Assembly: GCA_963695095.1 (NCBI GenBank)
Contig: CAVOFT010000001.1
Span: 1,856,001 to 1,920,000, forward strand
Origin: an uncultured bacterium
Lineage (GTDB): Bacteria; Krumholzibacteriota; Krumholzibacteriia; JACNKJ01
Direction: 5' to 3'
Length of the DNA stretch: 64,000 nt
The notes beneath the pieces were generated by a model. The model had not been told where the DNA came from and made no database searches. It saw only the letters and a list, made by a program, of their open reading frames with translations. The position numbers and the translations under genes were made by a program. Positions within the stretch are counted from its first letter, which is position 1; every line of letters begins with the position of its first letter. Positions 295-37,400 of the stretch are shown here, in pieces.

Positions 295-1743
295 ATGGCA
301 TTCCGCATCAATCACAACATCGCCTCGATGAACGCGTACCGGAACCTCGCGCGCAACGACAGGGGCTTCTCCGAGTCGCTCGAGCGCCTGAGTTCCGGCC
401 TGCGTATCAACAAGGCTGGCGACGACCCGGCGGGCCTGGTCGTCTCCGAGAACATGCGCGCACAGATCGCCGGCCTCGGCCAGGCGATCGAGAACAGCGA
501 ACTGGCCACGGCCATGGTGCAGACCGCCGAGGGCGCCCTGACCGAAGTGCACGCGCTGCTGACCAGCATGCGCGAGCTGGCCATCCACGCCGCGAACGAG
601 GGCGCCAACAGCGCCGCCGACCTCGCGGCCGACCAGTCGGAAATCACCAACGCCCTGGCCACCATCGACCGTATCGCCGGCCAGACCCAGTTCGGCACCA
701 AGAAGCTGCTGGACGGCTCCAACGGCGTCACCGGCACGGTGACCTCGGGCACGGTGTCCTTCCTCAGCGGCACGGGCGCCACCACGGCCGGCACCTACGA
801 CGTCGTGGTGACGACCCAGGCCGAGAAGGCCACCTTCACGACCACGAACACCGGGGCGATCGCGGGTATCACGGCCGACGAGACCTTGACCGTGACCAAT
901 GACGCGACCGGCGTCAGCGTGACGGTCAACCTCGAGGCCGGCGACAACCGGCAGACGATCATCGACAAGATCAACGCTTACAGCGACGAGACGCAGGTCG
1001 TGGCGACGACGAACGGCGCCAACAACATCAGCCTGACCAGCGCGGTCTGGGGCCGGGCCGGCGACTTCACGATCGTCTCCAGCCTGGAAGCGGTGGACGG
1101 CACGCAGAGCGGCTTCGCCGACGGGGCGGGCAACTCGGATGACGGCGTCAACATCGTGGGCACTTTCAACGTCGGCGCGACGGCGTATCAGGCGGACGGC
1201 CTGGGCGCCATCCTCACGGGCCGGGCGGGCAGCGTGGTCGAGGGCCTGCGGGTGCAGACCACGGCCGCGGCGGGCACGGCGGGCACGGTGACGGTGCGCA
1301 ACAACAGCCTGGTCTTCCAGGTGGGCGCCAATGCCGGGCAGCAGGTGACCCTCGCGATCAGCAACATGGCCGCCAGCATGGTGGGCACCGGCCTGGACGC
1401 TGCCAACGGCGGCGCCAACCAGTTCACCAGCCTGGCCGAGATCAGCATCCTGGACGCCGCCAAGGCGGCCGACTCGCTGGCCGTGATCGACAGGGCCATC
1501 GAGCAGGTGAGCACGATCCGCGGCACGCTGGGCGCCTTCCAGAGCAATACGCTGGAGAGCGGCGTCAACAACCTGCGCGTGGCCGAGGAGAACCTGGTCG
1601 CCGCCGAGTCGACGATCCGCGACACGGACATGGCCGCCGAGATGGCGACCTTCACCCGCAACCAGATCATGCTGCAGGCGGCCACGGCGATGCTCGCGCA
1701 CGCCAACTCCGCCCCCCAGGTGGTCTTGCAGCTGATGTCCTAG
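295..1743 (+). CDS. fliC: Flagellin
   Basis: N-term MAFRINHNIAS..ERLSSGLRINKAGDDPAGL; FQVGANAGQ; C-term ENLVAAESTIRDTDMAAEM..QAATAMLAHAN..VLQLM. Confidence 0.98.
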   Translation: MAFRINHNIASMNAYRNLARNDRGFSESLERLSSGLRINKAGDDPAGLVVSENMRAQIAGLGQAIENSELATAMVQTAEGALTEVHALLTSMRELAIHAANEGANSAADLAADQSEITNALATIDRIAGQTQFGTKKLLDGSNGVTGTVTSGTVSFLSGTGATTAGTYDVVVTTQAEKATFTTTNTGAIAGITADETLTVTNDATGVSVTVNLEAGDNRQTIIDKINAYSDETQVVATTNGANNISLTSAVWGRAGDFTIVSSLEAVDGTQSGFADGAGNSDDGVNIVGTFNVGATAYQADGLGAILTGRAGSVVEGLRVQTTAAAGTAGTVTVRNNSLVFQVGANAGQQVTLAISNMAASMVGTGLDAANGGANQFTSLAEISILDAAKAADSLAVIDRAIEQVSTIRGTLGAFQSNTLESGVNNLRVAEENLVAAESTIRDTDMAAEMATFTRNQIMLQAATAMLAHANSAPQVVLQLMS

Positions 1744-1772
1744 GGTCGACAGGCCATTCCGGCAATCCTCAA

Positions 1773-1807
1773 GGCTTCCCCCCGCCCGGGGGGGAGCCGT
1801 TTTTTTT
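1773..1807 (+). terminator. Rho-independent terminator after fliC
   Basis: GGCTTCCCCCC/GGGGGGAGCC stem followed by a run of 8 T. Confidence 0.9.
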
Positions 1808-1820
1808 GGCGGCTTGAGGC

Positions 1821-1848
1821 TCAAGCGGATCCCCCCAGACGCCGATAA
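1821..1848 (+). promoter_or_regulatory. Sigma28 (FliA) promoter of the fliD operon
   Basis: TCAAG-N15-GCCGATAA, perfect -10 element, directly after the terminator. Confidence 0.8.
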
Positions 1849-1940
1849 CCTGTGCGGGAGCCGCGGGAGGGCTCCCGGAGCGTCAGCGCCGGGCTCCAGC
1901 CCGAGCTCGGATTCAGGCCCGCTACAGGGGAGGAGCCGAC

Positions 1941-4286
1941 ATGCCCTTGGGTCTCAACTCCATTTCCGGATTGCTCAGCGGCATCGACACCGCGACCCTC
2001 GTCGACAAGATCATGCAGTTCGAGCGGCGGCCGGCCTACCTGCTCGAGGCGAGCAAGGCCAGGTCGGAACTGACGCTAGCCGGCTTCGGTGCCCTCGAGG
2101 CGGCCCTCGCCAACCTGCGCGGGGCCGTGGAAGGGCTGCGGCGGCCCTCGGACTTCCGCGGCATGCTCGGCAGCAGCTCCCATCCGGAATCGATCACGGC
2201 CAGCGTCGGCCGCAGTGCGGCCGCCGGCGTCTACAACCTGCGCATCGCCCAGCTCGCGCAGGGCCACCAGGTCGTCAGCAACGGCTTCGCCGATGACGAG
2301 GCGAGCCTGGGCACCGGCACCGTGACGCTCAGCCTGGCGGGGGAGGCGGCGGTCACCGTCACGCTGACCGACGGCAACGACAGCCTGCAAGATCTGGCGG
2401 CGGCCATCAACCAGGCCGGCGGCGGCATCACGGCGATGGTGGTGAACACGGGCACGGGCCAGACGCCTTACCAGCTCATCCTCTCGGGCAACAGCACGGG
2501 CGCCGCGCAGACGATCAGCGTCAGCAGCGAGCTCAGCGGCGGCAGCGGTATCAGCTTCGGCACGGTGGCCGGCGTCGTCATCGATCAGCAGACCGGCTCG
2601 AGCAGCATTGCCAGCGGCGGTCACTTCACCGGCGGCACCGACGGCAGCTACAGCTTCACGGTGACGACGGGCGGCGTCGTCGGCAGCGACACCATCGTCA
2701 TCGACTGGACCAGCGACCAGGGCGAAAGCGGACAGCTCACCCTGGACAGCGATTACGCCGGCGAGGCGCTGACCGTGCAGGGCAGCCTGACCCTCAGCTT
2801 CGGCGCCGGCGATCTGCAGGCGGGCGACGCCTGGAGCGTCAGCGCCGTCAGCAGCACCATCCAGGGGGCCCAGGATGCCCTGATCAGCTTCGGCAGCAAC
2901 TCCCCGATCACGATCGCCAGCGCGACGAACACGGTGAGCGGACTCATCGAGGGCGTCACGCTGAACCTGCTGGCCGCCGATGCGGAGCAGACGGTGACGG
3001 TCAAGGTGGAGCACGATGTCGAGAGCCTCGTCGACAGTCTGGACGGCTTCGTGACCAAGTACAACGCCGCGCTCGACTTCCTGCTCGAGCAGTTCGCCTA
3101 CAATCCGGACACCGAGAACGCGGGCATCCTGCTCGGAGACCGCACGGCGATGCGCCTGGAGAGCTCGATTCGCAGCGACGTCATGCGCTCCGTCGCCGGC
3201 CTGGCCGGCGAGCTGAATCAGCTGGCCGAAATCGGCATCGGCACCAGCATGGGCGGGGCACTGGACTACGATGGCAAGCTGAGCATCGACGAGGACATCC
3301 TCCGCGAGGCGATTCGCACGGATCTCGATGGCGTGGTCGCTCTGCTCGGCAGCACGGGCACGAGCAGCGACGAGGACATCATCTTCCTCAACGCCGGTCT
3401 CGGCGTGCAGCCGACGGGAGGCCAGAGCGGCTACCAGGTGGTCATCACCCAGGCCGCTACCCAGGGCAGGCTCAACGGCGGCGTCTTCGCGGCGCCCTCG
3501 CCCGGGGTGCCTTTCACCGTGGGCGCCGGCGACAACCAGCTGCGCCTGAAGGTGGACGGCGTCTCCAGCGGCGCGATCGATGTTCCCGCTGGCAGCTACG
3601 CCAGCGGCGAGGCGCTGGCGGCAGCCATCCAGGAGGCCGTCAATGCCGACGCCGGACTGGGCGGCAAGACCGTCGGCGTGAGCTGGGAAGACGCCGGCGG
3701 CGGCCAGGGCCGGCTCGTCATCACGAGCCGGAGCTGGGGGGGCAACAGCAAGGTCACCCTCGAGGCGACCGAGGGCGCGCTCGCCGATCAGCTGGGCCTG
3801 ACCGGCGGCAGCCCGCTGGTCGGCCACGACGTTGCGGGCCACTTCCTCGTGAACGGGGCCGTGCAGGAGGCCACCGGCTCGGGCCGCATCCTCACCGGCA
3901 GCGCGAGCAACGCGGCGACGGACGGGCTCAGCGTCCAGGTCAACCTCACGGAGACGTCGCTGGCAGCGCAGGGCCAGGCGCAGGGCAGCGTGCGCGTCTG
4001 GAGCGGCGTCACCGATCGGCTCTACCGCACCCTCGACGGGGCCCTGGACAGCGTGGACGGCATCCTCACGATCAAGCAGGACAGCCTGCGCGATACCATT
4101 GCCGACTACGAGAAGCAGGTCAAATCGATCGACGCCCGCCTGGCCAAGCGCAAGGACCGCTACTTGGCCGAATTCATCCGCATGGAGAGCCTGCTCGCCG
4201 AGATGTCGGCCACCAGCAGCGCCATGAACTCCATGCTCGCCAATATCTCGGCAGTCTCGACCAGCTCCAGTTCGAGCAACGGGTAG
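1941..4286 (+). CDS. fliD: Flagellar filament cap protein, long form (781 aa)
   Basis: ISGLLSGIDTATLVDKIM N-term; QLAQGHQ; SATNTVSGLIEGVTLNL; FVTKYNA; C-term coiled coil RYLAEFIRMESLLAEM. Confidence 0.95.
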   Translation: MPLGLNSISGLLSGIDTATLVDKIMQFERRPAYLLEASKARSELTLAGFGALEAALANLRGAVEGLRRPSDFRGMLGSSSHPESITASVGRSAAAGVYNLRIAQLAQGHQVVSNGFADDEASLGTGTVTLSLAGEAAVTVTLTDGNDSLQDLAAAINQAGGGITAMVVNTGTGQTPYQLILSGNSTGAAQTISVSSELSGGSGISFGTVAGVVIDQQTGSSSIASGGHFTGGTDGSYSFTVTTGGVVGSDTIVIDWTSDQGESGQLTLDSDYAGEALTVQGSLTLSFGAGDLQAGDAWSVSAVSSTIQGAQDALISFGSNSPITIASATNTVSGLIEGVTLNLLAADAEQTVTVKVEHDVESLVDSLDGFVTKYNAALDFLLEQFAYNPDTENAGILLGDRTAMRLESSIRSDVMRSVAGLAGELNQLAEIGIGTSMGGALDYDGKLSIDEDILREAIRTDLDGVVALLGSTGTSSDEDIIFLNAGLGVQPTGGQSGYQVVITQAATQGRLNGGVFAAPSPGVPFTVGAGDNQLRLKVDGVSSGAIDVPAGSYASGEALAAAIQEAVNADAGLGGKTVGVSWEDAGGGQGRLVITSRSWGGNSKVTLEATEGALADQLGLTGGSPLVGHDVAGHFLVNGAVQEATGSGRILTGSASNAATDGLSVQVNLTETSLAAQGQAQGSVRVWSGVTDRLYRTLDGALDSVDGILTIKQDSLRDTIADYEKQVKSIDARLAKRKDRYLAEFIRMESLLAEMSATSSAMNSMLANISAVSTSSSSSNG

Positions 4287-4289
4287 GGC

Positions 4290-4802
4290 ATGACAGTACT
4301 CGATCCGACCGGCGCCCTCGTGGCGCCCGAGCGCCGCGAAGGCGAGCCCCAGGACGGCGTGCGCAGCGGCGGGCAGGCGCGGCCTGCCCAGGGCCAACAG
4401 CAGCGAGCGCAGCGCGCCTACCAGGAGAGCCGCGTTCGCGGCGCCGATCCCCAGCAGCTGCTCGCCCTGCTCTATGACGGGCTCCTGCAGAGCGTGCGCG
4501 CCGGCCAGACGGCCCTCGGCGAACGCGACTGGGAGGCGGCGCAGGCTGAGCTCAGCAAGGCGCGGCGGATTGTCACCTATCTGAGCAACTCCCTGCGCCC
4601 CGAAGGCGGGGCGATCACCGAGCGCCTGCGGCCCTTGTACGCTTTTTGCTTCGAACGCATCGGCCGCGCCAGCCTGGAGCAGCGGCCCGAGCTGCTCGAT
4701 GGGGTGGCGAAGGTGGTCGGCGAACTGAACGGCGCCTGGAGCGCGCTTGCGGGCAGCCGGCGGGAGCCGGCGGCCGGCCGGCAGGAGCAACATGAGCCCT
4801 GA
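4290..4802 (+). CDS. fliS: Flagellin export chaperone
   Basis: AYQESRVRGADPQQLLALLYDG..LSKARRIVTYLSNSL..LRPLY..ELNGAW; follows fliD. Confidence 0.92.
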   Translation: MTVLDPTGALVAPERREGEPQDGVRSGGQARPAQGQQQRAQRAYQESRVRGADPQQLLALLYDGLLQSVRAGQTALGERDWEAAQAELSKARRIVTYLSNSLRPEGGAITERLRPLYAFCFERIGRASLEQRPELLDGVAKVVGELNGAWSALAGSRREPAAGRQEQHEP

Positions 4803-5133
4803 GTCCATTGCCCGTGCCCAGCTGGAAGGACTCGGCGTTCTGGCTGCCGAGCGCCTGGCCGCCGCGCGCCGCGGCGACTGGCAGGGCTTGGCCGCCTTGG
4901 AGAGCCAGCGACGGGAAGCGCTGGACGCCATCGTTCCGCAGGATCTGGCTGCCCTGGCGGCGACGGCCCCGGAGGCCCTCAGCGCGCTGCGGCAGGAGTT
5001 GGGCGAGCGGGACCGTCTGATCGAATGCGCCCTGCGCAAGGCACTGGCCGCGAGGGCCAGCGCTGCAGCCGAAGCTCAGGCTCAGCAACGCGCGGAGCGG
5101 GGCTACCTCAAGGGGTCCCCCGCGTCCTCTTGA
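4792..5133 (+). CDS. Small helical protein, FliT-like by position
   Basis: RBS CAGGAG before ATG 4792; AARRGDWQGLAALESQRREAL resembles FliT; follows fliD-fliS. Confidence 0.55.
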   Translation: MSPESIARAQLEGLGVLAAERLAAARRGDWQGLAALESQRREALDAIVPQDLAALAATAPEALSALRQELGERDRLIECALRKALAARASAAAEAQAQQRAERGYLKGSPASS

Positions 5134-5149
5134 CGGCCTAGAGCTTGCT
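5134..5149 (+). promoter_or_regulatory. Candidate sigma54 promoter of flgM
   Basis: CGGCCTAGAGCTTGCT: GG 5135-5136, TTGC ending 5148, exact spacing; -24 box imperfect. Confidence 0.5.
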
Positions 5150-5183
5150 ACCGTTCCGGATGAGGCCCCAGGATCGGAGGAAC

Positions 5184-5558
5184 ATGGTGGAGATCGGCAA
5201 GTCCGCAGCCGTTCACGGTCAGGAATTGGCCAAGCTCTACGGGCAGCGCGCCGAATCGGAGGGCGCCCCGGAGGTCTCGGACCAGCAAGCCACGCAGAAT
5301 CGCCCGGTAGGGACGGGCGAGGGCAGGGCCGCCGTCATGGTGCAAATCAGCCCCGAGGCGCGCGATCGGGCCGAGCGCGAAGAAGCGCTCGCCGCCGCCA
5401 AGGCCGTCTACCCGGATCTGCCACCCATCCGGGCCGATGTCGTGGAGGCCGTCCGCCAGCGCCTGGAGGCGGGTTTCTACGAGACCCCGGCTGTCAAGGA
5501 TGCGCTCGTCGAGCGCCTCCTGCCCCTGGCCCGCCGTCTGGAGGCTGGCTCCCGCTAG
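5184..5558 (+). CDS. flgM: Anti-sigma28 factor FlgM-like
   Basis: RBS GGAGG; VQISPEAR and C-term IRADVVEAVRQRLEAGFY..ALVERLL match the FlgM pattern. Confidence 0.7.
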   Translation: MVEIGKSAAVHGQELAKLYGQRAESEGAPEVSDQQATQNRPVGTGEGRAAVMVQISPEARDRAEREEALAAAKAVYPDLPPIRADVVEAVRQRLEAGFYETPAVKDALVERLLPLARRLEAGSR

Positions 5559-5704
5559 GCCGTCCTCGGCCCAGCTGCACGGCAGTCCGGGCGCTGCGGG
5601 CCCCATGACGGTCCGCTCCCGGTGTTGGCAAAAAATCTTGCGGCTTTGGACAATGCCTGCTAGGCACTGCTGCAGTGCGCGCTCCGCGCGACGGGGGGAG
5701 AGCA

Positions 5705-10365: not shown

Positions 10366-10373
10366 GAGTGAGT

Positions 10374-28168: not shown

Positions 28169-28945
28169 GTGACCTGGCCTGTCATCGAAACCGAGAGCGT
28201 CGTGCTCTACATGCTGATCCTGGCCCGCACGGCGGCCTTCTTCGCCGTCTTCCCCGGCCTGGGCGGCGGGGCGGTGCCGATGCGGATCAAGGCCGGGGCC
28301 GCGGCGACGCTGAGCGCGCTGCTCTTCACCGCGGTGCCGGCGCCTGCCCTCTTGCCCGCGGATGCCCTGGCGCAGGTGCTGCTCATCCTGCGCGAGACGA
28401 TCGTGGGCCTCCTGCTCGGCTCGCTGGTCAATTTCGTCTTCATGGCCGCCCAGTTCGCAGGCGAGATCGTCGGCGTGCAGATGGGCCTGGCCGCTGCCGG
28501 GATCTACGATCCGAGCACGCAGGAAACCGTCGGCGTGAACGGGCGCTTCTACCACTTCATCGCCCTGCTCCTCTTTCTCAGCCTCGACTTGCACCATCCC
28601 TTCCTGCGCGGCCTGGGCAGCTCGTTCACGCTGCTGCCGGTGGGCGAGACGGGACTGGCTCCGGCCGGCTTCCTGCGCTGGGGGGAGCTGTCCGGTCAGG
28701 TCTTCGCCCTGGCGCTGCGTCTGAGCATGCCGGTGCTCGCGGCGCTGCTCCTGATCGACCTCGCGCTGGGCTTCCTCAGTCGCCTGGTGCCCCAGATGAA
28801 CATCTTTCTGGTCGGCTTTCCGCTGAAGATCGGGGCCGGCCTGATCGTGCTCGCCCTCGGCGTGCGCAGCGCGGGCCCCCTGCTCGTGCGCGCCTGTGAC
28901 CGCCTGGCGATCGATTTCCACTCCCTCCTGACCTGGATGCGCTGA
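28169..28945 (+). CDS. fliR: Export gate protein
   Basis: AGEIVGVQMGL..YDP; GFLSRLVPQMNIFLVGFPLKI. Confidence 0.95.
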   Translation: MTWPVIETESVVLYMLILARTAAFFAVFPGLGGGAVPMRIKAGAAATLSALLFTAVPAPALLPADALAQVLLILRETIVGLLLGSLVNFVFMAAQFAGEIVGVQMGLAAAGIYDPSTQETVGVNGRFYHFIALLLFLSLDLHHPFLRGLGSSFTLLPVGETGLAPAGFLRWGELSGQVFALALRLSMPVLAALLLIDLALGFLSRLVPQMNIFLVGFPLKIGAGLIVLALGVRSAGPLLVRACDRLAIDFHSLLTWMR

Positions 28946-28946: not shown

Positions 28947-30023
28947 ATGGCCGAGAGCGCGGGACAGGAACGGACAGAGCTCGCCACCCCCAGGCGGCGA
29001 CAGGAGGCGCGTGAGCGCGGCCAGGTCGCGCGCAGCCAGGAGCTGAGCAGCTTCCTCGTGCTCCTGTCGGCCCTGGTCGCACTGGCGGCGCTGGCCCCCC
29101 GTCTCGGCGCGGGGCTCGGCCGCTTTCTCGTGGGCGGCATCGACGCCGCCTTCACGGTGCGCCTGGACGCGAGCACGCTGCCCCTGCTCAATCGCATCTG
29201 GCTCGCGGAGGCCCTGCGCCTGCTCACCCCGCTCTGGCTGATCCTGCTCGTGGTCAGCGTGGGCGCGGCGGTGGCCCAGGTCGGCTTCACGATCAACGGC
29301 GCCCTGCTCGCGCCCAAGCCCGAGCGCATCGATCCCGTCGCCGGCTTCAAGCGGCTGTTCAGCAAGCGCAGCAGCTTCGAGCTGGCCAAGAGCCTGCTCA
29401 AGATGGGCCTGCTGCTCGTGATCACCTGGTGGACGCTCGCCGGCCGCGCGGAGGCCATCGTCGGTCTCTCCGACCTGGAGCTGGGACCGGCCCTGCTCGT
29501 GCTCGGCCAGACCGCGCTGCTGCTGGCCGGGCGGCTGATCATGCTGATGGTGGTCCTCGCCGGCGCCGATTACGCCTTCCAGCGCTGGCAGCACGAGCAG
29601 GACATCATGATGACGCCCCAGGAGTTGAAGGAAGAGTACAAGGAGACGGAGGGCGATCCCCTCATCAAGGCGCGCCTGCGCGCGCTCCAGCGCGAGATCT
29701 CCGTGCGGCGAATGATGGAGGACGTCAAGCGCGCCGACGTCGTCGTCACCAACCCGACCCATGTCGCCGTCGCCCTGCGCTACAAGGCGACGGAAGGCAC
29801 GCCGCGTGTGCTCGCCAAGGGCGCCGACCTCGTGGCGGCGCGCATCCGCGACACCGCTCGCGAGGCGAAGGTGCCGGTGGTGACGAATCCGCCGCTCGCG
29901 CGCGCTCTCTACGCTGAGTGCGAGATCGGCGCCACGATTCCGCTCAAATTCTTCCAGGCCGTGGCCGAGCTCCTGGCCTACGTCTATCGCCTGCGCCCCC
30001 AGGGCGCCCGGGCGGGGGGCTAA
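28947..30023 (+). CDS. flhB: Export substrate-specificity switch
   Basis: ERTELATPRR; KETEGDP; intact NPTH autocleavage motif. Confidence 0.97.
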   Translation: MAESAGQERTELATPRRRQEARERGQVARSQELSSFLVLLSALVALAALAPRLGAGLGRFLVGGIDAAFTVRLDASTLPLLNRIWLAEALRLLTPLWLILLVVSVGAAVAQVGFTINGALLAPKPERIDPVAGFKRLFSKRSSFELAKSLLKMGLLLVITWWTLAGRAEAIVGLSDLELGPALLVLGQTALLLAGRLIMLMVVLAGADYAFQRWQHEQDIMMTPQELKEEYKETEGDPLIKARLRALQREISVRRMMEDVKRADVVVTNPTHVAVALRYKATEGTPRVLAKGADLVAARIRDTAREAKVPVVTNPPLARALYAECEIGATIPLKFFQAVAELLAYVYRLRPQGARAGG

Positions 30024-30032: not shown

Positions 30033-32099
30033 ATGGCCGAGACGCTCCGCACGCAGCGAACGGACGGCATCCTGAAGGGCAATGCCAACATCCTGGTCGG
30101 CGTCGCCCTGATCGGCATTCTCGCCGTGATGGTGCTGCTGTTGCCGGCGCCGCTGCTCGATCTGCTGCTGTCGTTCAACATCACCTTCGCGCTCATCATC
30201 TTGATGGTGACCTTCTACATCAAGGATCCGCTGAGCGTCTCTGTGTTCCCCACCCTGCTGCTCTTCCTGACGCTCTTCCGGCTGGCGCTGAACGTGGCCT
30301 CGACCCGCCTCATCCTGCTCAACGGCTACGCGGGCAAAGTGATCGAGTCCTTCGGCGGTTTCGTGGTGGGCGGCAATCCCGTCGTCGGCCTGGTGGTGTT
30401 CCTGATCCTGGTCATCATCCAGTTCATCGTGATCACCAAGGGCGCCGGCCGCGTGGCCGAGGTGGCCGCCCGCTTCACGCTCGACGCCATGCCCGGCAAG
30501 CAGATGGCCATCGATGCCGACCTGAACGCCGGTCTCATCGATGAGAAGGAGGCGCGCCGGCGCCGGGAACGCATCGGCGATGAAGCGGACTTCTTCGGCG
30601 CCATGGACGGTGCGAGCAAGTTCGTGCGCGGCGATGCGATCGCCGGCATCGTGATCATCGTGGTCAACATCCTGGGCGGCTTCATCATCGGCATCGCCCA
30701 GCTCGGCATGCCCTTCGGCGAGGCCCTGAGCACCTACACGCTGCTCACCGTCGGCGACGGCCTGGTCAGCCAGATCCCGGCCCTGATCATCTCGGTCAGC
30801 TCCGGCATCGTGGTCACCCGCGGCCGCAGCCAGAACGATCTGGGCGAGGATATCATCGGCCAGCTCTTCGGCCAGCCCAAGGCGCTCGGCATCGCCGCCG
30901 GCGCCCTGGGCGTGCTGGGCCTCGTGCCGGGCCTGCCCCACCTGCCATTCCTCGCGCTGGGGGCCCTGAGCGGGGTGGCGGCCTGGCGGCAGCGCGGCCG
31001 GGCTGAGGGCGAGGAGCTGGTCGCCGCGCCGGTCGCCGCGGCGCCGGGGGATCCGCTCGAGGACCGTTCTCTCTTCCAGGTCGATCGCCTCGAACTGGAG
31101 ATCGGCTACGGACTCATCCCGCTCGCCGATGCCTCCCGGCGGGGCAATCTGCTCGAGCGGGTGACGGCCATCCGCCGGCAGCAAGCCACGGAGCTCGGGC
31201 TCTACGTCAGCCCCGTGCGCATCCGCGACAACATCCACCTGAAGCCGGGCGAATACGCCATCAAGCTCAAGGGCGTGGAGCTCGAGCGCGGGGAGATCCT
31301 ACCCGGGCACCTGCTCTGCATCGCCAGCCCAGAGGAGCGGGCGGGGCTGCCCGGCATCGAAACGGTGGAGCCGGCCTTCGGGCTCTCGGCGCTCTGGGTG
31401 CCGGAGGCCGCGCGCGAGACGGCGGCGGACCGGGGGCTCACCCTGGTGGAGCCGCCGGCGGTGATCAGCACGCATCTGGCGGAGATCCTCAGGCGGCATG
31501 CCGACGAGATCATGAGCCGCGAGGACGTCAAGCGCCTGGTCGAGGGCGTGCGCGAGCTGGCGCCGGCTCTGGTGGAGGAGCTCATTCCAGGCCAGGTCAA
31601 GCTGGGCTTCCTGCAGCAGATCCTGGCGACCCTCCTCCACGAGCGCGTGCCCATCCGCGACATGGTCACCATCCTGGAAACGATCGGGGACCACGTCGGC
31701 CAGAGCCACAACGCGGACTTCATCGCTGAAAAGGTGCGCGAGGCGCTCGGACGGGCGATCCTGCGCGAACATCTGGACGAGCGCGGCGCCCTGGCCGTGG
31801 TCACGCTCGATCACCGCGCCGAAGAGCTCTTCCTCGGCGCGCTGAAGCAGTACGGGGAGACCGGCGGCATCTTCTTGCCGCCGGAGACGGCCGAGCGCTT
31901 CCAGGCGCGCCTGCGCGCCGAGGCGGAGCGCGTCACGCGGCGCGGCTACACGCCGGTGATCCTGGTCTCGAGTCCGATCCGGCTCCTGTTCAAGCGCTAT
32001 ACGGAGATCTTCCTGCCCGGCCTGACGGTCCTGGCCTTCGGCGAAGTGCCCGCCGGGACCGAGGTCAATGCCCTGGGGATGGTGAACCTCGATGACTGA
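30033..32099 (+). CDS. flhA: Export apparatus protein
   Basis: RVAEVAARFTLDAMPGKQMAIDADL; GAMDGASKFVRGDA; VRIRDN. Confidence 0.98.
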   Translation: MAETLRTQRTDGILKGNANILVGVALIGILAVMVLLLPAPLLDLLLSFNITFALIILMVTFYIKDPLSVSVFPTLLLFLTLFRLALNVASTRLILLNGYAGKVIESFGGFVVGGNPVVGLVVFLILVIIQFIVITKGAGRVAEVAARFTLDAMPGKQMAIDADLNAGLIDEKEARRRRERIGDEADFFGAMDGASKFVRGDAIAGIVIIVVNILGGFIIGIAQLGMPFGEALSTYTLLTVGDGLVSQIPALIISVSSGIVVTRGRSQNDLGEDIIGQLFGQPKALGIAAGALGVLGLVPGLPHLPFLALGALSGVAAWRQRGRAEGEELVAAPVAAAPGDPLEDRSLFQVDRLELEIGYGLIPLADASRRGNLLERVTAIRRQQATELGLYVSPVRIRDNIHLKPGEYAIKLKGVELERGEILPGHLLCIASPEERAGLPGIETVEPAFGLSALWVPEAARETAADRGLTLVEPPAVISTHLAEILRRHADEIMSREDVKRLVEGVRELAPALVEELIPGQVKLGFLQQILATLLHERVPIRDMVTILETIGDHVGQSHNADFIAEKVREALGRAILREHLDERGALAVVTLDHRAEELFLGALKQYGETGGIFLPPETAERFQARLRAEAERVTRRGYTPVILVSSPIRLLFKRYTEIFLPGLTVLAFGEVPAGTEVNALGMVNLDD

Positions 32100-33138
32100 G
32101 CAGACGGTGGTCGCGCGCGACCTGCGTAGCGCGCTGCGGACGGTTCGGCAGCGTTTCGGCGACGAGGCCCTGATTCTGGAAACGCGTGCGCGGCGGCGGC
32201 CACTGGCCGGCAGCCTCCGCCTGGCCGATGAAATCGAGTTGCGGGTGGGGCTGCCGGGGCCGACGGACAGCCCCGGCAGGGCCGAGCGCAGCCTGGCCGC
32301 CGAGCTCGAGCGACTCGAGCGCCTGATCGCCGACATGGAGTCGGCGCTGACCCTGCCCGAGCCGGCCTACCCACTGGCGGCTGCGCTCGCCGAGCTGGGC
32401 GTGTTGCCCGAGACGCTGGCCCGCCTGAGCGCGGATCACGCCGAGGAGGTGCCGCCGGTCGACCAGGAGCGGGTGGAGCCGGCCTTGGCCCGCCTGGCGC
32501 TCGCGCTGCCCTGCCTGGAGGCGATGGCGGCGGCCGATCTGCGCGGCTTCCACGCCCTCCTGGGCGCCGCGGGCGTGGGGCGCAGCACCCTGGCCATGAA
32601 GCTCTGCGCCGCCGCCGCCGCCAGCGGGACGGATGCCGTGCACCTCGCCTTCGCGCCCACCCACGCGGGCGAGCGGATGCGGCTGGAGGCGGAGGCGATG
32701 GCCGCCGGTCACGAGGTCGTCCTCGCCGTCGACGGCGCGGCGCTCGGCGAGGCCCTGCGCTATCTGCAGCGCCGCGATCTGGTCATCGTCGACATGCCGG
32801 CCTTCCAGCCCGAGCAACTCGGGCTGCTCGAGCGGGCGGCCGATGCCGCTGGCGTGCCGATGCTCCTGCGCCATGCCCTGCTCGCCGCCGACGGCTGGGC
32901 TCGCCTGGCGCCGGGTCTCGGCGAGGCTGCGCACTATCTGGCCATCACGCGCGCCGATCTGGCCGACCCGCTGCGCCTGGCGCTCGATCTGACGCCCGGG
33001 GCCTCGCCATTGCTCTCCTTCGTGGCCGCGGGCCGGGAGCCCGGCACGCCGCTCGCGCTGGCGACGCCGGCCACCCTGCTGGCCGGTCTGCGGGCTTCCC
33101 TGCGGCCCGCTCGCGCCGAGGCGGGGGCGGGGCGATGA
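32092..33138 (+). CDS. flhF: FlhF-like SRP-family protein with degenerate GTPase motifs
   Basis: N-term ALRTVRQRFGDEALILET; GAAGVGRST; DLVIVDMPA; ITRAD; follows flhA. Confidence 0.75.
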   Translation: MTEQTVVARDLRSALRTVRQRFGDEALILETRARRRPLAGSLRLADEIELRVGLPGPTDSPGRAERSLAAELERLERLIADMESALTLPEPAYPLAAALAELGVLPETLARLSADHAEEVPPVDQERVEPALARLALALPCLEAMAAADLRGFHALLGAAGVGRSTLAMKLCAAAAASGTDAVHLAFAPTHAGERMRLEAEAMAAGHEVVLAVDGAALGEALRYLQRRDLVIVDMPAFQPEQLGLLERAADAAGVPMLLRHALLAADGWARLAPGLGEAAHYLAITRADLADPLRLALDLTPGASPLLSFVAAGREPGTPLALATPATLLAGLRASLRPARAEAGAGR

Positions 33139-33329
33139 CCGGCATGCAGCGCCTGAACGTCCTGGTGGCCATCCTGGCCTTTCTCTACGGCATCTGGCGG
33201 GGCTGGCCCCTGGGGCTCGCCCTGCAGAAGGCCCTGATCGCCTACGTGGCGGTCTTCGGGGCCCAGATCCTGGTGATCATCGGCTTGCTGCGTCTGGCCC
33301 GCGGACCCGCCGAGTCCCGGCGGCCCTAG
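33135..33329 (+). CDS. Small two-TM hypothetical membrane protein
   Basis: ATGA overlap with flhF; two hydrophobic stretches; GC3-rich codons. Confidence 0.7.
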   Translation: MTGMQRLNVLVAILAFLYGIWRGWPLGLALQKALIAYVAVFGAQILVIIGLLRLARGPAESRRP

Positions 33330-33345: not shown

Positions 33346-33361
33346 TGGCACGCTTGCTGCA
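33346..33361 (+). promoter_or_regulatory. Sigma54 promoter of fliA
   Basis: TGGCACGCTTGCTGCA: perfect -24 box, exact GG-N10-GC spacing, intergenic. Confidence 0.8.
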
Positions 33362-33429: not shown

Positions 33430-34245
33430 TTGGAAAAGGCCCTGGCTTTGTGGGAATCCTACCACCGTGCGCGGTCCCCACGGGATCGTGAGCACCTGAT
33501 CGTCCACTACCTGGGCCTGGTCAGATACGTGGCAGGACGGCTGGCAGCCGGCCTGCCGGATTCGGTCGAAATGGACGACCTGGTCGGCGCCGGCATGATC
33601 GGGCTGATGAAGGCGGTCGAGGCCTTCGACCCCGCCAAGGAAGTCAAGTTCGAGACCTACTCGATCCCGCGCATCCGCGGGGCGATGCTCGACGAGCTGC
33701 GCAACCAGGACTGGTTTCCCCGCTCCGTGCGCCGCAAGGCCAAGCGCATCGACGCGGCCGTCCACGAACTCGAGGCGAGGCTGGGCCGCAGCCCCCGCGA
33801 CGTCGAGCTGGCCCGCCATCTCCACCTGGACCTGGAGGACTTCTACCGGCTTGCCGGCGAGGTCTCCCAGTCGAGCCTGCTGTCGATCGAGGAAGAGCTG
33901 CGGGTGGGCAAGGACGGCACCTATGCCTCGGTGCGGGAGATCCTGTCTGATCTACGCGTTCCCAACGCCTGCGAGCGTCTGGCGGACAAGGAGCTGCGGG
34001 CCATCGTGCTCGAGACGCTGGAGCAGCTCGACGAGAAAGAGCGGCTGGTCCTGACTCTGTACTACTTCGAGGAGCTGACCCTGGCCGAGATCGGCGAGGT
34101 GCTGGGGGTCAGCGAGAGCAGGGTGTGTCAGATCCACGGCAAGGCCGTGGGTCGCTTGCGCCTGCGCGTGCGCAGCCGCACGCGAGAACAACCACTGCCG
34201 TTGCGGCGACCTCTCCGGCGCAAGGAGGCGACGGCGCAGAGCTGA
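33430..34245 (+). CDS. fliA: Flagellar sigma factor sigma28 (FliA/WhiG)
   Basis: DDLVGAGMIGL..FETYSIPRIRGAMLDELR..DWFPRSVR; LYYFEELTLAEIGEVLGVSESRVCQIH; TTG start. Confidence 0.96.
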   Translation: MEKALALWESYHRARSPRDREHLIVHYLGLVRYVAGRLAAGLPDSVEMDDLVGAGMIGLMKAVEAFDPAKEVKFETYSIPRIRGAMLDELRNQDWFPRSVRRKAKRIDAAVHELEARLGRSPRDVELARHLHLDLEDFYRLAGEVSQSSLLSIEEELRVGKDGTYASVREILSDLRVPNACERLADKELRAIVLETLEQLDEKERLVLTLYYFEELTLAEIGEVLGVSESRVCQIHGKAVGRLRLRVRSRTREQPLPLRRPLRRKEATAQS

Positions 34246-34255: not shown

Positions 34256-34489
34256 ATGGAAGAGATCCATCGCATCGAGAAGCCCACGCCGCCGCCCCCG
34301 CCTGTCGGGGGAGGGACGGCCAGCCAACCGGGCCGGCGCCGGCGAGAGGGCTTCCGGGACTACCTCGAACGCCAAGGGCGCGGCGATCGCTCCGACGAGG
34401 AGCCGCCGGCAGCGCCGCCCCCGGCGGAGACGCCGGCCGCGGACGATGAGGACAGGGAGCGGGGCCGGCTCCTGGACGAGCGCGCCTGA
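34256..34489 (+). CDS. Small Pro-rich hypothetical protein ending GRLLDERA
   Basis: RBS GAGG; packed directly after fliA. Confidence 0.6.
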   Translation: MEEIHRIEKPTPPPPPVGGGTASQPGRRRREGFRDYLERQGRGDRSDEEPPAAPPPAETPAADDEDRERGRLLDERA

Positions 34490-34513: not shown

Positions 34514-34894
34514 ATGCCGATGCGGGAGATCCTGGATTCGCTGCTGCAGGGGGGAAGCCCGACCCTGGCCCTCTGGACGGGGCTCTTCGGCACGGGCCTG
34601 CTCCTGCTGATCGGATTGGCGCGCCGCTTGCGCGCGGATCGGGCTGCGCGCGGGGAATCCGCCCGGCGCGAAGCGCCGCGGCTGGACACCGGGGGCCAGC
34701 GGCGTCAAGCGAAGTCGGCCTACGCTGCCCACAGCGCGGGGGCGGGACCCCTGCCGCCGAAGGACGATGCGGGGCCGTCGTCTTACAATTCTGGCACGAT
34801 GCCGGCCTCCCCGGCTTGCCCCGCCGAACTGAGCCGGCGGATCGATCGCTTGGAGGCCAAGGTGCAGGCGAGGAGAGCCGGGAGTCATGGCTGA
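34514..34894 (+). CDS. Hypothetical single-TM protein with C-terminal coiled coil
   Basis: RBS AAGGGAG; LALWTGLFGTGLLLLIGL; ELSRRIDRLEAKV; overlaps the next start. Confidence 0.55.
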   Translation: MPMREILDSLLQGGSPTLALWTGLFGTGLLLLIGLARRLRADRAARGESARREAPRLDTGGQRRQAKSAYAAHSAGAGPLPPKDDAGPSSYNSGTMPASPACPAELSRRIDRLEAKVQARRAGSHG

Positions 34895-35765
34895 CACCCT
34901 CGACAGACTGATGGCCAGGGTGGGCAAGCTGCCCACGATGCCGCACGTGGCTGCGAAGATCCTCGAGCTGGTCGGTGATCCTACGACGAGCGCGCGCAAG
35001 CTCCAGGTCGTCATCGATAGCGATCAGGTGCTGGCGCTGCGCATCCTCAAGGTCGCCAACAGCGCCCTCTACTCGCTGCCGCGCAAGGTGAAGACCCTGC
35101 GCGAAGCCATCGTCATGCTGGGCTTCAATCACATCCGCAGTCTCGTGCTCGCCGAGGCCATCCAGAATCTCTTCAAGGGCAAAGGCAAGCGGGGCGATCT
35201 GCTCGAGTCCCTGCTCTGGGAACATTCGGTGGGCGCGGCGATCGCCGCCAAGACGGTGGCGCGCGAGATCATGCCCGGACTGAGCGAGGAGGCCTTCGTC
35301 ACCACCTTGGTGCATGACATCGGCAAGCTGATCCTGCTCCAGAGCGACCCGCCGGGCTATCACGAGATCATCCAGGAGATCTACGCCGACTACCGGCCCT
35401 TCAGCGAGCTCGAGCAGGCGCGCTACGGCATGGATCACGCCGAGGTGGGGGCGGCCCTCGCCGCGCGCTGGAATCTGCACGAGGGGGCGGTGGCGGCCAT
35501 CCGGCAGCACCACAGCGACTCGGGCGAGGACGCGCTCATCGATCTGCTGCGCATGGGCAATGCCATGGCCTGGAAGGCCGAGTGGGGATTTCGCAAGGAA
35601 CCGGATCTGGCCCTGGCCAGCCTGCCCTGCGCCCAGCGGCTGGGCCTCGGCGAGGAGCTCCTCGCCAACCTGCTGATCGCCAGCCGCGAGCTGCTCGATG
35701 CCGAGCGGCAGACCTTCGGTGTTCCCGAGCTCGGCCGCTCGCGGCGCGAGGAGGGGGCGGCCTAG
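34887..35765 (+). CDS. HDOD-domain protein
   Basis: LPTMPHVAAKIL; DQVLALRILKVANSALY; WEHSV; LVHDIGKL; DHAEVGAALAARWNL. Confidence 0.93.
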   Translation: MADTLDRLMARVGKLPTMPHVAAKILELVGDPTTSARKLQVVIDSDQVLALRILKVANSALYSLPRKVKTLREAIVMLGFNHIRSLVLAEAIQNLFKGKGKRGDLLESLLWEHSVGAAIAAKTVAREIMPGLSEEAFVTTLVHDIGKLILLQSDPPGYHEIIQEIYADYRPFSELEQARYGMDHAEVGAALAARWNLHEGAVAAIRQHHSDSGEDALIDLLRMGNAMAWKAEWGFRKEPDLALASLPCAQRLGLGEELLANLLIASRELLDAERQTFGVPELGRSRREEGAA

Positions 35766-35796
35766 CCGAAAGGCAGGCGTCCCGCCCTGAGCCCTC

Positions 35797-35825
35797 TTGA
35801 CAGGCGCGGCGCGGTCGCCTACATT
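35797..35825 (+). promoter_or_regulatory. Sigma70-type promoter
   Basis: TTGACA-N17-TACATT. Confidence 0.8.
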
Positions 35826-35879
35826 CCTGCCAAGATGTCAGCCGGACTCTGAATCCATTATTCTGCAAAGGGTTGGACT

Positions 35880-37400
35880 ATGTCGCCGGATCCCGCGGTC
35901 AGGGATGACGGCCTCTTCATCGTCAGCCGCGAACCCTCGCTCCTGGCCGCCATCGAGGGCTGGGGCCCCCTGCTGGGCGCGCCGATCTTCGCCCATCCCA
36001 CACTGCAGGCCGCCTATGCGGCGCTGGAGGCCTATCGGCCCCTGCTTCTCCTGCTCGACCGCCGCAGCGAAGCGGGCAGCGTCCTCGGCCTCCTGCGCAA
36101 GTTGCGGCGCCGGCACCGCGACCTCGAACTGATCCTCCTGGAGAGCCCGCGCAGCGAGAAGGTGCGCCGCGAGGAGCGCCTGGCCGGGGTGGACCTCTTC
36201 ATCGACCTCCCCTTGCCGGATCGCGATCTGCGCCTGCTGCTGGAGCGGCGCGTCCGCCTGAGCCGATTCCGGCGGGACTGCCAGATCATCGGCAAGAGCG
36301 AAGCCCTCGAGCAGATCATCGAGATGATCCTGCACATCGCGCCGACGGACATCAGCGTGCTCATCACGGGGGAGAGCGGCACCGGCAAGGAGCTGATCGC
36401 CCAGACCCTGCACAGCCACAGCCGCCGGGCGCAGGCGCCCTTCCTGGCGCTCAACTGCGGCGCCCTGCCGGAAGGCACGCTCGAGAGCGAGCTCTTCGGC
36501 CACGAGCGGGGCGCTTTCACTGGAGCGACGAACGCCCATCCCGGCCACTTCGAGCGCGCCGACGGCGGCACGCTCTTCCTCGACGAGATCGGCGAGCTGA
36601 GTCCGGCCATCCAGATCCGCCTGCTGCGGGTGCTGGAGACCGGCGAGTTCATCCGCGTGGGCGGGGTGCGCACGCAATCGGCCGATGTCCGCCTGCTGGC
36701 GGCGACGAACCGCGACCTCAATCTCGAGGTGCGCGAGGGCCGTTTCCGCCGCGATCTGCTGCATCGCATCAAGGTGATCGAAGTGCGGGTGCCTCCCCTG
36801 CGCGAGCGGTCCGAGGACATCCCTCTGCTCATCGAGCAGTTCCTGCGCGAGCTCCATGCGAAGGAGGGCACGCCGCTCTTCGAACTGGATCCGGAGCTGC
36901 TCGACGTGCTGATGGAGGCGCCCTGGCTCGGCAACATCCGCGAGCTGCGCAACACGGTGCAGCGGATGGCCGTGCTCGCGCGCGGCTCACGGCTTGGCCT
37001 GGCCGACCTGCCCGCGGATTTCCTCCGCCAGGAGGAGGCGCCGCGGGCCAATCTGCCGGTAGCGCTCAGCCTGCGCCCCGAGGACGCTGAGCGCGAACTG
37101 CTCTATCGTTCGCTGCTCGCCTTGCGCGAGGAGGTGGGGGAGGCGCTGGCCATTTTGCGGCGCTTCGAGCGGGACCTGGCGGGCGAGGCCGCGGGCCCGG
37201 GCCGGGAGGCGGAAGGCTTGAGCGGGCTGGGCCGCGACTTGAGCCGGGCCGAGGGCGGCGTGAGCCTGGAGGCCATGGAGCGGCGCCTGGTAGAGAACGC
37301 TCTGGCCGAGAACCGCGGGCATCGGCGGCGCACGGCGCGGCAACTCGGGATCAGCGAACGGACGCTCTACCGCAAGCTCAAGGAGTACGGCCTGGACTGA
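35880..37400 (+). CDS. Sigma54-dependent activator with atypical receiver-like N-terminus
   Basis: GESGTGKE; ESELFGHERGAFTGA; LFLDEIGE; WLGNIREL; LGISERTLYRKL. Confidence 0.93.
   Translation: MSPDPAVRDDGLFIVSREPSLLAAIEGWGPLLGAPIFAHPTLQAAYAALEAYRPLLLLLDRRSEAGSVLGLLRKLRRRHRDLELILLESPRSEKVRREERLAGVDLFIDLPLPDRDLRLLLERRVRLSRFRRDCQIIGKSEALEQIIEMILHIAPTDISVLITGESGTGKELIAQTLHSHSRRAQAPFLALNCGALPEGTLESELFGHERGAFTGATNAHPGHFERADGGTLFLDEIGELSPAIQIRLLRVLETGEFIRVGGVRTQSADVRLLAATNRDLNLEVREGRFRRDLLHRIKVIEVRVPPLRERSEDIPLLIEQFLRELHAKEGTPLFELDPELLDVLMEAPWLGNIRELRNTVQRMAVLARGSRLGLADLPADFLRQEEAPRANLPVALSLRPEDAERELLYRSLLALREEVGEALAILRRFERDLAGEAAGPGREAEGLSGLGRDLSRAEGGVSLEAMERRLVENALAENRGHRRRTARQLGISERTLYRKLKEYGLD

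Follow-up and report, generated by a model that had tools for sequence, protein, structure and literature searches.

A probable vertically inherited flagellar regulon without chemotaxis genes in an uncultured bacterium of Candidatus Krumholzibacteriota

Introduction

What kind of flagellum is encoded by a long run of flagellar genes in a phylum without cultures, and how is it controlled? The question is raised by a stretch of 64,000 nucleotides, hereafter the window, from contig C1 of a genome designated G000 (C1:1856001-1920000). The genome measures 3.64 Mb in 2 contigs and its completeness is estimated at 93.5%. An earlier note on the window had described positions 295-37400 as an atypical flagellar supercluster, with its own regulation and with reduced switch and placement modules. 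The region was examined here together with the rest of the genome and a set of 40 further GTDB genomes (also given G numbers), 11 from the same family and 29 from other families of the class.

The region probably makes up most of a flagellar regulon of the diderm type that is complete and vertically inherited, is run by a sigma54/sigma28 cascade and is free of chemotaxis control. Parts and gene order are ordinary. The control layer is a variant one: there is no chemotaxis, FliM has no docking peptide, a motif-degenerate FlhF stands without FlhG, two sigma54 two-component pairs are present, and PilZ, HDOD and PP2C-STAS proteins are conserved members. Three things had escaped the earlier note: the third of the cluster that lies upstream, the lack of chemotaxis genes and the replacement of the stator. 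This is apparently the first anatomy of a flagellar regulon for the phylum in the literature searched. The picture of what a flagellum is remains unchanged, and the value of the locus is comparative.

Extent of the cluster and identity of the host

The 43 candidate + strand open reading frames (ORFs) at 295-37400 were compared with Pfam, and 31 ORFs with NCBIfam; hydrophobic segments were judged by a Kyte-Doolittle scan. Coordinates below are window positions and features lie on the + strand unless stated otherwise. The genes at 295-37400 form a co-oriented series without interruption, and most of their Pfam or NCBIfam E-values fall between 1e-10 and 1e-259. These assignments bear out the earlier description of about 37 kb with genes for filament, hook, membrane/supramembrane (MS) and cytoplasmic (C) rings and a full export gate. 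Of the two limits given for the region, the 3' one at 37400 is confirmed: beyond it lie genes for a PorV-like protein and for sugar nucleotidyltransferases, and housekeeping genes. The 5' one is merely the edge of the window. A genome search for the rod C-terminal domain first revealed the remaining 15.97 kb in L007, the 20 kb directly upstream of the window. The full cluster spans C1:1840032-1893400 (~53.4 kb, about 57 genes, all on one strand), and 295-37400 is its 3' two-thirds.

In + order the upstream part encodes a PilZ protein, an HDOD protein, a PP2C (SpoIIE-type) phosphatase, a STAS anti-sigma antagonist, FlgF, FlgG, FlgA, FlgH, FlgI, a FlgJ-like protein, FlgN, FlgK, FlgL, FliW, CsrA and two flagellins (fliC1, fliC2). 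RNB-family RNase and HU genes flank the cluster upstream of the PilZ gene. MS ring, C ring, rod, hook, junction, filament and cap are all encoded (FliF, FliG, FliM, FliN, FlgB, FlgC, FliE, FlgF, FlgG, FlgE, FlgD, FliK, FlgK, FlgL, three FliC, FliD). All eight export components, FliP/FliQ/FliR/FlhB/FlhA and FliH/FliI/FliJ, score above the Pfam cut-off (2e-8 to 6e-259). Every structural part except the stator is thus encoded within the cluster. The bushing genes found upstream of the window (FlgH 4e-45, FlgI 8e-122, ChapFlgA 1e-13) make the flagellum suited to a diderm cell envelope. An injectisome reading was ruled out, since flagellin, hook, rod, L/P rings and stator are all encoded.

The host SecA is 82% and 69% identical to proteins named at NCBI as Candidatus Krumholzibacteriia/Krumholzibacteria, and about 56% identical to those of the next named groups, Latescibacterota and Zixibacteria. 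These values place the host as an uncultured bacterium of Candidatus Krumholzibacteriota, in the Fibrobacteres-Chlorobi-Bacteroidetes (FCB) group, as the earlier note had surmised in calling it a little-studied FCB lineage. G+C content is ~70% across the window and even, at 0.65-0.75. Several products had escaped automatic annotation or were misread by it, and were corrected here: the split fliM, and the unrecognised FlhF, FlgB, FliE, FlbD, PilZ and CsrA.

The split fliM and the exchanged stator

The gene fliM (25048-26107) is read in two frames (25048-25797 and 25739-26107), with one extra base near 25770. On the FliM model TIGR01397 these ORFs cover positions 34-219 and 238-319, respectively. 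FliM is a single ORF in 8/8 relatives, and the frameshift is private to this assembly. One base at 25770 is missing from contigs of about 95% identity that come from two runs of a single study. No public run closely holds the G000 fliM stretch, the best sharing 0.26 of its words. A PorV/PorQ-like gene (37518-38578) and the essential ffh (C1:1709502-1710084) are likewise split between frames, and the three cases together suggest indel errors in the two-contig assembly. An assembly indel is most likely the cause of the fliM frameshift, though the ~95%-identical contigs, coming from relatives and not from this population, do not tell a sequencing error from a real mutation. The C ring (FliG, FliM, FliN) is complete, and the reduced switch of the earlier note comes down to a 1-nt frameshift private to one assembly.

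The stator differs from that of most relatives. In these, motA (259 aa) and motB (about 245 aa) lie between flbD and fliL, a MotA-like protein being found in the cluster in G002-G011. In G000 and G001 motAB are absent, and a gap of 140 bp (24329-24468 in G000) takes their place. The single MotA/MotB pair of G000 is found at C1:951226-953106 (L114:5226-7106), 900 kb from the cluster, with MotA_N and MotA_ExbB domains in one protein and MotB_plug and OmpA in the other. Among the 41 genomes this distant type occurs in G000, in G001 (91%) and, within another family, in G012 and G017 (69%). These four have no second MotA-like match, and the in-cluster type is that of the remaining 19 flagellar genomes. 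Its nearest named relatives outside the set are a Krumholzibacteria protein (82%) and proteins of Acidobacteriota (about 50-53%). Judged by this distribution, the in-cluster stator is replaced by the distant one in G000 and G001. How easily stator units are exchanged is a question that the locus raises.

Could these features be signs of a flagellum in decay, already out of function in this strain, with the cluster heading for loss as in many relatives of the class? The split fliM, the missing motAB and the absence of CheW and of methyl-accepting chemotaxis proteins (MCPs) would fit such a course. So would the distribution of FlhA, which was not found in 18/29 genomes of other families, indicating that loss is common in the class. 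However, every other gene of the cluster has an open reading frame, with 53-93% identity to G001/G002. G000 has a replacement stator, which is kept in G001 at 91%. The split ffh and PorV-like genes point to assembly indels, and fliM is in one frame in the ~95%-identical contigs. Eight other genomes of the family, moreover, retain the whole cluster without CheW. Decay is therefore considered an unlikely account of the locus, and a complete regulon the better one.

Gene order and descent of the cluster

To compare the order of genes, 60 query proteins were run by tblastn against the syntenic DNA of 8 family relatives. The order from PilZ to the third sigma54 activator (EBP3) is complete in G002, G005, G009 and G010. 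In G001, G006, G007 and G008 it is kept up to the contig ends, several contigs breaking at the flagellin repeats. The core order flgB...flhA-FlhF-like is common to 7 genomes of five other families, except that in G023 (f3) flhA is followed at once by fliA. FlhA itself was found in 11/11 genomes of the same family and in 11/29 of the other families.

The order called atypical in the earlier note proved to be widespread. The series flgB...fliJ-ylxF-fliK-flgD-flgE-flbD-(motAB)-fliL-fliM...flhA-flhF-fliA occurs class-wide, and its part around flhA is common with other FCB phyla. The order in G000 equals that of the Bacillus subtilis fla/che operon and the spirochaete flgB operon. These share with it the core flgB-flgC-fliE-fliF-fliG-fliH-fliI-fliJ-ylxF/flbB-fliK-flgD-flgE-flbD-(motA-motB)-fliL-fliM-fliN-fliO-fliP-fliQ-fliR-flhB-flhA-flhF-...-sigma28, and the relatives of G000 keep motAB at the same place. 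Unlike those operons, the cluster of G000 has L- and P-ring genes and sigma54 regulators inserted before flgB, motAB are deleted, che genes are absent from the cluster and from the rest of the genome, and a search for flhG found none.

FlhA trees were built with FastTree (101 rows, the partial row L078 dropped) and with IQ-TREE under LG+C20 (50 rows, omitting G001, G010, G011, G012 and 47 of the 79 full-length named loci). Both place the FlhA proteins of five families of the class together in a single clade with support of 100. This clade is nested with KSB1, Fibrobacterota, Zixibacteria and Ignavibacteriota (support 96 and 95), and the FCB-type clade is sister to a group of Bacillota, Actinomycetota and Chloroflexota (99). 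The nearest named FlhA proteins outside the class, among the matches listed, are about 50-54% identical and spread over many phyla. The trees and the even base composition point to old, mainly vertical inheritance with repeated loss, and not to a recent import. The synteny comparison and the FlhA tree that the earlier note had asked for thus give an order shared through the class and a system grouping among other FCB flagella.

The Firmicutes-like order might instead come from recent horizontal transfer out of a donor in Bacillota, Spirochaetota or the deltaproteobacteria. The fla/che and flgB operons fit the order flgB...fliJ-ylxF-fliK-flgD-flgE-flbD-fliL, the FCB-type FlhA clade is sister to the Bacillota group, and the closest named FlhA outside the class reach only the identities just given. 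Against transfer stand the five-family clade nested among FCB phyla by two tree methods, the class-wide synteny, the uniform G+C content and the L/P-ring genes, which mark a diderm-type system. Recent import is very unlikely on this evidence, and the FCB-type flagellum would be an old trait, vertically kept and repeatedly lost within the class.

Flagella have been recorded before in members of the FCB group other than Bacteroidia and Chlorobia (PMC3362086, PMC10936416). The former paper reports a flagellar gene set for Ignavibacterium album, and the latter gives flagellar genes of a Krumholzibacteriota genome (bin 3.1) as KEGG counts. Bin 3.1 is there credited with chemotaxis genes too, and G000 is without them. 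No description of cluster anatomy, regulation or FlhF for Krumholzibacteriota was found in the literature searched.

Absence of a chemotaxis pathway

Chemotaxis genes were sought by a six-frame search of the genome that read through stops, in which control genomes were positive as expected. No CheW domain and no MCP signalling domain were found in G000. Among the 11 family relatives, all of which have FlhA, CheW was found in three (G003, G006, G008) and MCPs in four (the same three and G002). Eight of the 12 family genomes, G000 included, therefore have a flagellum and neither CheW nor MCP. The seven relatives in this state are 77-100% complete.

Phosphorylated CheY docks on an N-terminal peptide of FliM of the type LSQxEIDALL. 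FliM N-termini were read in 19/22 loci, those of G022, G026 and G032 being dropped as they have no YDFxxP anchor. A motif of this type was found in 0/12 family genomes. LSQEEIDALL was found in the FliM of G016 only, and G016 has CheW. In G004, G005 and G009-G011 FliM starts about 20 residues before the conserved core. With no chemotaxis pathway and a FliM without the docking peptide, the motor is probably not steered by CheY. Candidate inputs to the motor would be the PilZ protein of the cluster (a predicted receptor of cyclic di-GMP), its two HDOD proteins and its PP2C-STAS pair.

A chemotaxis system might nevertheless be present and have been missed, either unassembled or too divergent for Pfam, so that the flagellum is steered as usual. 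The genome is 93.5% complete, three members of the family (G003, G006, G008) have CheW and MCPs, and indel errors of the assembly could hide genes. The search, however, was six-frame and stop-tolerant with positive controls, the genome lies in 2 contigs, seven further family genomes are also without CheW and MCP, and FliM lacks the docking peptide. The chance that such a system was overlooked is judged to be slight, and a flagellum outside chemotaxis control remains the preferred reading.

A precedent exists in Aquifex aeolicus, which according to partial text of PMC4525482 is flagellate without che receptor genes and swims linearly. G000 resembles it in having flagellum genes without che receptor genes. 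The same source, as far as its text was available, states that Aquifex aeolicus has no fliM (PMC4525482), whereas G000 keeps FliM (whole in relatives) with the docking peptide absent. PilZ, HDOD and PP2C-STAS genes, again unlike Aquifex aeolicus, belong to the cluster of G000. How a motor with a full C ring is used without a chemotaxis pathway is a question that follows.

The PilZ gene (L007:4032-4400) scores 35.7 bits against a cut-off of 22.5. Motifs of PilZ receptors for cyclic di-GMP are RxxxR and D-x-S-x-x-G, and the protein reads RRAPR and DLSRNG. The gene is in place in 4/4 relatives whose contigs extend that far. HDOD2 (34887-35765; HDOD 2e-55) lies near the 3' end of the cluster. Such genes also stand after fliA or the FlhF-like gene in five other genomes, G015, G016, G026, G027 and G039. 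At L137, L138, L140, L141 and L144 (G015, G039, G026, G027 and G016, in four other families) they are two in tandem, and HDOD thus looks like a conserved member of the flagellar regulon of the class.

A degenerate FlhF-like protein without FlhG

The gene after flhA (32092-33138) encodes an FlhF-like protein that reaches 52.2 bits with TIGR03499, against a cut-off of 174.15. It gave no Pfam SRP54 match at E 1e-5 and was missed by a PF00448 search of the genome. In 9/10 further genomes examined, the gene after flhA is again FlhF-like but scores below the threshold (49-94 bits), the exception being G023; 29 of 48 listed ORFs were scanned in this survey, and those of G012 and G017 were not included.

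To compare motifs, the FlhF-like proteins of the class were aligned with canonical FlhF sequences from 12 named genomes. Across the class the G2 motif DTYR gives way to P-x-H-x-G-E, the G3 motif DTAG to D-x-P-A/C and the G4 motif TKLD to T/S-x-x-D-L. In G000 the G1 motif reads GAAGVGRS versus GPTGVGKT, G3 reads D-M-P-A versus DTAG and G4 reads T-R-A-D-L versus TKLDE. The P-loop lysine is kept in G003, G011, G015, G039 and G016, and is arginine in G000, G022, G026 and G037. An AlphaFold model of the protein (predicted local distance difference test 83.9, predicted TM score 0.75) gave as its best Foldseek match in the PDB the FlhF of Shewanella putrefaciens (8r9r; E 2.6e-12, TM 0.74 on target). 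The next matches were Ffh/FtsY NG domains and the FlhF of B. subtilis (2px0, 2px3). By model and alignment, then, the predicted protein is an FlhF homologue that keeps the NG fold of signal recognition particle (SRP) GTPases and has lost the canonical G2-G4 motifs and, in G000, the P-loop lysine.

FlhG was not found next to this gene, where a 64-aa ORF and then fliA stand instead. A search for the FlhG motif DQAxxLR gave 14 six-frame matches, all Arg-rich and off-frame and none in a MinD-like ORF; no scan with MinD/ParA models was made. In other FCB phyla the order flhA-flhF-flhG-fliA occurs in 6/6 loci. The claim of a reduced placement module thus stands, in the form of degenerate FlhF motifs with no FlhG found. 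Placement or assembly would use an FlhF homologue with the SRP-GTPase fold and degenerate motifs.

Like the FlhF of S. putrefaciens and B. subtilis, the protein of G000 has its gene after flhA and a predicted NG-domain fold. It differs from them in falling below the NCBIfam cut-off, in the class-wide replacement of the G2-G4 motifs and in having no FlhG next to it. The available portion of a 2025 review of the FlhF-FlhG switch (PMC12826062) contains no mention of such a form. What job is done by an FlhF with the fold but without GTPase motifs and FlhG is a further question raised.

Regulators and promoter motifs of the cluster

Three sigma54 activators are interleaved with the structural genes, together with two cytoplasmic kinases, as the earlier note had stated; neither kinase has a hydrophobic segment. 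The anti-sigma28 factor gene flgM (5145-5558, the true start possibly further downstream) matches FlgM at 6.5e-6 (26.7 bits, above the cut-off of 25). It is followed by HK1 (5675-7789), a soluble GAF-PAS histidine kinase (HisKA 6e-18, HATPase_c 9e-26, GAF_3, PAS), and by RR1 (7786-9162), an activator with a receiver, a sigma54 AAA+ domain and a Fis-type helix-turn-helix. The loop of RR1 reads GAFTDA. This was read in 5/8 family copies, including those of G002, G006, G007 and G008, and also in G016, G022 and G026 of other families; the loop pattern was not found in G005, G009 and G010. The second pair consists of HK2 (10796-11509), a minimal soluble kinase of dimerization (DHp) and catalytic (CA) domains only (HisKA 1e-6, HATPase_c 6e-12), and RR2 (11506-12897), a receiver and sigma54 activator with GAFTGA. 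In two f6 genomes among G016, G022 and G026, RR2 has GAFTNA and not GAFTGA. None of the NCBIfam matches of RR2, which include Campylobacter FlgR (1.5e-83) and Caulobacter FlbD (3e-112), reaches its curated cut-off. Both RR1 and RR2 have normal receiver signatures.

The third activator, EBP3 (35880-37400), is FleQ/FlrA-like (Sigma54_activat 4e-67, HTH_8; GAFTGA). Its N-terminus is receiver-like without the acidic pocket, reading LFIVSRE where RR1 and RR2 read VDDE. The sigma28 gene fliA (33430-34245) matches FliA_WhiG at 1e-79 (267 bits, cut-off 190). One copy of rpoN is present in G000. Family f6 has the block flgM-HK1-RR1-(TPR)-FlgN-like-HK2-RR2-flgB as well, f2 has it in part, and f4 and f5 are without it. 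It is thus limited to some families of the class (f1, f6 and partly f2).

A sigma54 promoter is predicted at 33346-33361 (TGGCAC-N5-CTGCA), 84 nt upstream of fliA. It is the sole + strand -24/-12 match scoring at least 10 in the 55-kb region scanned, the - strand having none. Both strands of contig C1 hold 44 such matches, and 0.34 are expected per 55-kb strand. The element lies 83-84 nt upstream of fliA in 9/9 genomes. A second sigma54-like element, at 19030-19045 in the 3' end of fliJ, stands 50 nt upstream of ylxF and at 40-52 nt in 9/9 genomes. Its mean column identity is 0.94 versus 0.70 in 150 nt of fliJ upstream, a value matched by 0/191 other 16-nt windows. Another lies at the annotated start of flgM (5134-5149), in the same place in 8/8 genomes holding the region and with scores of 8-10. 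The element at 172-187 (TGGCAT-N5-CTGC), 123 nt upstream of fliC3, is weak (score 8 of 11) and putative; a similar one is found upstream of fliC2 in G000 and of one flagellin in G002.

Promoters of other types were also recognised. A motif of the sigma28 type precedes fliD (1821-1847; TCAAG-N15-GCCGATA) and is also found before fliD in G002 and G005. Motifs of this kind (TCAAG-N15-GCCGATAA) precede HDOD1, fliD and fliC1, and recur in some relatives. Before HK1 lies a sigma70-like promoter (5638-5666; TTGCGG-N17-TAGGCA) with an A/T-rich stretch upstream, and its -35/-10-like boxes are aligned in 8/8 genomes. A TGG...TTGC element upstream of HK1 was also considered as a sigma54 site and was ruled out by its GG-N11-GC spacing in 8/8 genomes. 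The sigma70-type promoter before EBP3 (35796-35824) reads TTGACA-N17-TACATT. Its -35 hexamer is aligned in G000, G002 and G008, and TACATT of G000 has similar hexamers in G002 and G008. Just 3' of this promoter, at 35825-35870, a box TGCCAAG-x-TG-x-CAG is common to the same three genomes and could be an operator.

From these motifs a cascade of four steps may be proposed. One sigma70-type promoter would drive the FleQ-like sigma54 activator, and another would drive the soluble HK1 with RR1. Next, the sigma54 activators together with RpoN would start transcription of flgM, fliA, two of the flagellin genes and the ylxF-fliK-flgD-flgE...flhA block. FliA, restrained by FlgM, would turn on fliC1, fliD-fliS and the HDOD-PP2C-STAS operon. 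Finally, FliW-CsrA would tune translation of flagellin.

This scheme has a known counterpart in the four-tier hierarchy FleQ/FlrA - FleSR/FlrBC - FliA/FlgM of Pseudomonas and Vibrio, and in FlgSR of Campylobacter. Like these, G000 has a FleQ-like activator whose receiver-like N-terminus is non-phosphorylatable, pairs a soluble kinase with a sigma54 response regulator, and possesses rpoN, fliA and flgM as well as a predicted sigma54 promoter before fliA. The flagellin genes of G000 are divided between sigma54-like and sigma28-like promoters, as in that hierarchy. G000 departs from it in having two kinase-activator pairs and not one, an activator with GAFTDA, no FlhG/FleN antagonist in the cluster and a different gene order. 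The regulation of its own that the earlier note had proposed is not borne out: the logic looks like the known one of FleQ/FlrA, kinase-activator pair and FliA/FlgM, with one extra kinase-activator pair.

Points against the reading and a bolder extension

Several observations weigh against a complete, vertically inherited regulon with this cascade and without chemotaxis. The fliM gene is frameshifted in this assembly, and if the frameshift were real the motor of the strain would be broken. The FlhA trees were rooted at midpoint only. FlhA of family f3 stands outside the main clade of the class, so inheritance across the class is not purely vertical. The genome is estimated to be 93.5% complete. 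In G003, G006 and G008 FliM is also without the canonical docking motif, yet these genomes have CheW and MCPs, and the missing motif is thus not strictly tied to loss of chemotaxis genes. The long acidic N-termini of FliM in these three genomes could dock a CheY in another way. G002, of the same genus, has three MCP genes, no CheW and a retained in-cluster motAB, and looks like an intermediate stage of chemotaxis loss.

As to control, the wiring of the cascade, unlike the parts list, its conservation and the placement of the host, is inferred from promoter motifs and their conservation. The sigma28 and sigma70 patterns were scored without a shuffle control, and the flgM element of G000 itself is non-consensus (CGGCC...TTGCT). 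With its GAFTDA loop RR1 may not engage sigma54, and an anti-sigma kinase partner for PP2C-STAS was not found in the cluster.

A bolder extension is possible but doubtful. In most of the family, the flagellum would work without chemotaxis, its motor being set by PilZ, two HDOD proteins and a sigma28-controlled PP2C-STAS switch, and FlhF would be a scaffold dead in nucleotide hydrolysis, acting without FlhG. If true, flagellar control would have been rewired across a whole class of an uncultured FCB phylum.

Remaining genes of the cluster and its surroundings

The structural genes of the window follow a compact order. The third tandem flagellin gene, fliC3 (295-1743; Flagellin_N 3e-39, Flagellin_C 1e-21), is followed by the filament cap gene fliD (1941-4286; 781 aa, FliD_C 1e-42, FliD_N 2e-17), the flagellin chaperone gene fliS (4290-4802; FliS 1e-26) and a weak FliT-like chaperone (4747-5133; FliT E 1e-4, 23.5 bits, below the cut-off of 29.5). 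The proximal rod gene flgB (12905-13267; TIGR01396 2e-20, 73.4 bits, cut-off 59) opens the central series. It continues with the rod gene flgC (13278-13751; Flg_bbr_C 7e-13, Flg_bb_rod 1e-5), fliE (13762-14064; TIGR00205 5e-20, 71.5 bits, cut-off 30), the MS ring gene fliF (14089-15591; YscJ_FliF 3e-58, YscJ_FliF_C 2e-28) and the rotor/switch gene fliG (15595-16671; FliG_N, FliG_M and FliG_C, 1e-27 to 5e-45). Next are fliH (16655-17299; FliH 6e-10), the export ATPase gene fliI (17289-18602, start codon chosen; ATP-synt_ab 7e-83, T3SS_ATPase_C 3e-22) and fliJ (18602-19075; FliJ 2e-8).

A YlxF/FlbB-like membrane-anchored protein (19080-19616) has an N-terminal hydrophobic segment and matches MgtE_N at 4e-8 and collar_FlbB at 2e-12, the latter below cut-off. 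It precedes the hook-length control gene fliK (19613-21217; Flg_hook 2e-11), the hook cap gene flgD (21228-21947; FlgD 1e-19, FlgD_ig 2e-16), the hook gene flgE (21995-24067; 690 aa, Flg_bbr_C 4e-17, FlgE_D2 5e-11), flbD (24089-24328; FlbD 2e-22) and fliL (24469-25032; FliL 8e-21). After fliM come fliN (26104-26517; FliMN_C 1e-23, NCBIfam fliN 1.5e-27), fliO (26527-26955; FliO 2e-7), fliP (27094-27888; FliP 2e-83), fliQ (27898-28161; Bac_export_3 7e-28), fliR (28169-28945; Bac_export_1 2e-61), flhB (28947-30023; Bac_export_2 1e-118) and flhA (30033-32099; FHIPEP 6e-259).

The at least five unassigned ORFs counted by the earlier note have mostly been named, with four exceptions. One encodes an exported TPR protein (9274-10365, probable start near 9379) with weak TPR matches and a hydrophobic segment at aa 39-59; it is kept in 7/7 family relatives holding the region and also in G026. 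The 64-aa membrane ORF (33135-33329) has a hydrophobic segment and is kept in G001, G002, G006, G007 and G008. The 77-aa ORF (34256-34489) gave no Pfam or NCBIfam match and is 44-46% identical in G002, G006, G007 and G008. The 126-aa membrane ORF (34514-34894) has a hydrophobic segment and is weakly conserved. A second, weak FlgN-like chaperone (10368-10799; FlgN E 8e-4, below cut-off) is kept before flgB in G016, G026, G022 and G039.

The upstream flagellin genes occupy L007:16604-19867 and form with 295-1743 a set of three in tandem. Identity between fliC2 and fliC3 is 98.8%, and that of fliC1 to both is about 91-91.7%. The contigs of G006, G007 and G008 begin at the flagellin repeat, so the flagellin copy number of relatives is probably under-assembled. 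In family f3 the cluster is arranged differently (G023; L146, L161, L162): fliA comes directly after flhA, there is no FlhF-like gene, and flgF-flgI lie downstream.

Beyond the 3' end, a PorV/PorQ-like outer-membrane gene follows the FleQ-like activator also in G002, G005, G008, G009 and G010. In the window two NTP-transferase/hexapeptide genes come after it (37518-41073 with the PorV/PorQ-like gene). The FlgJ-like gene of the cluster encodes a rod-binding domain only, and a separate muramidase may, speculatively, be needed. A LysM-SLT lytic transglycosylase gene (41114-43219, - strand) and a GGDEF diguanylate cyclase gene (43271-44608) lie 4-6 kb past the cluster.

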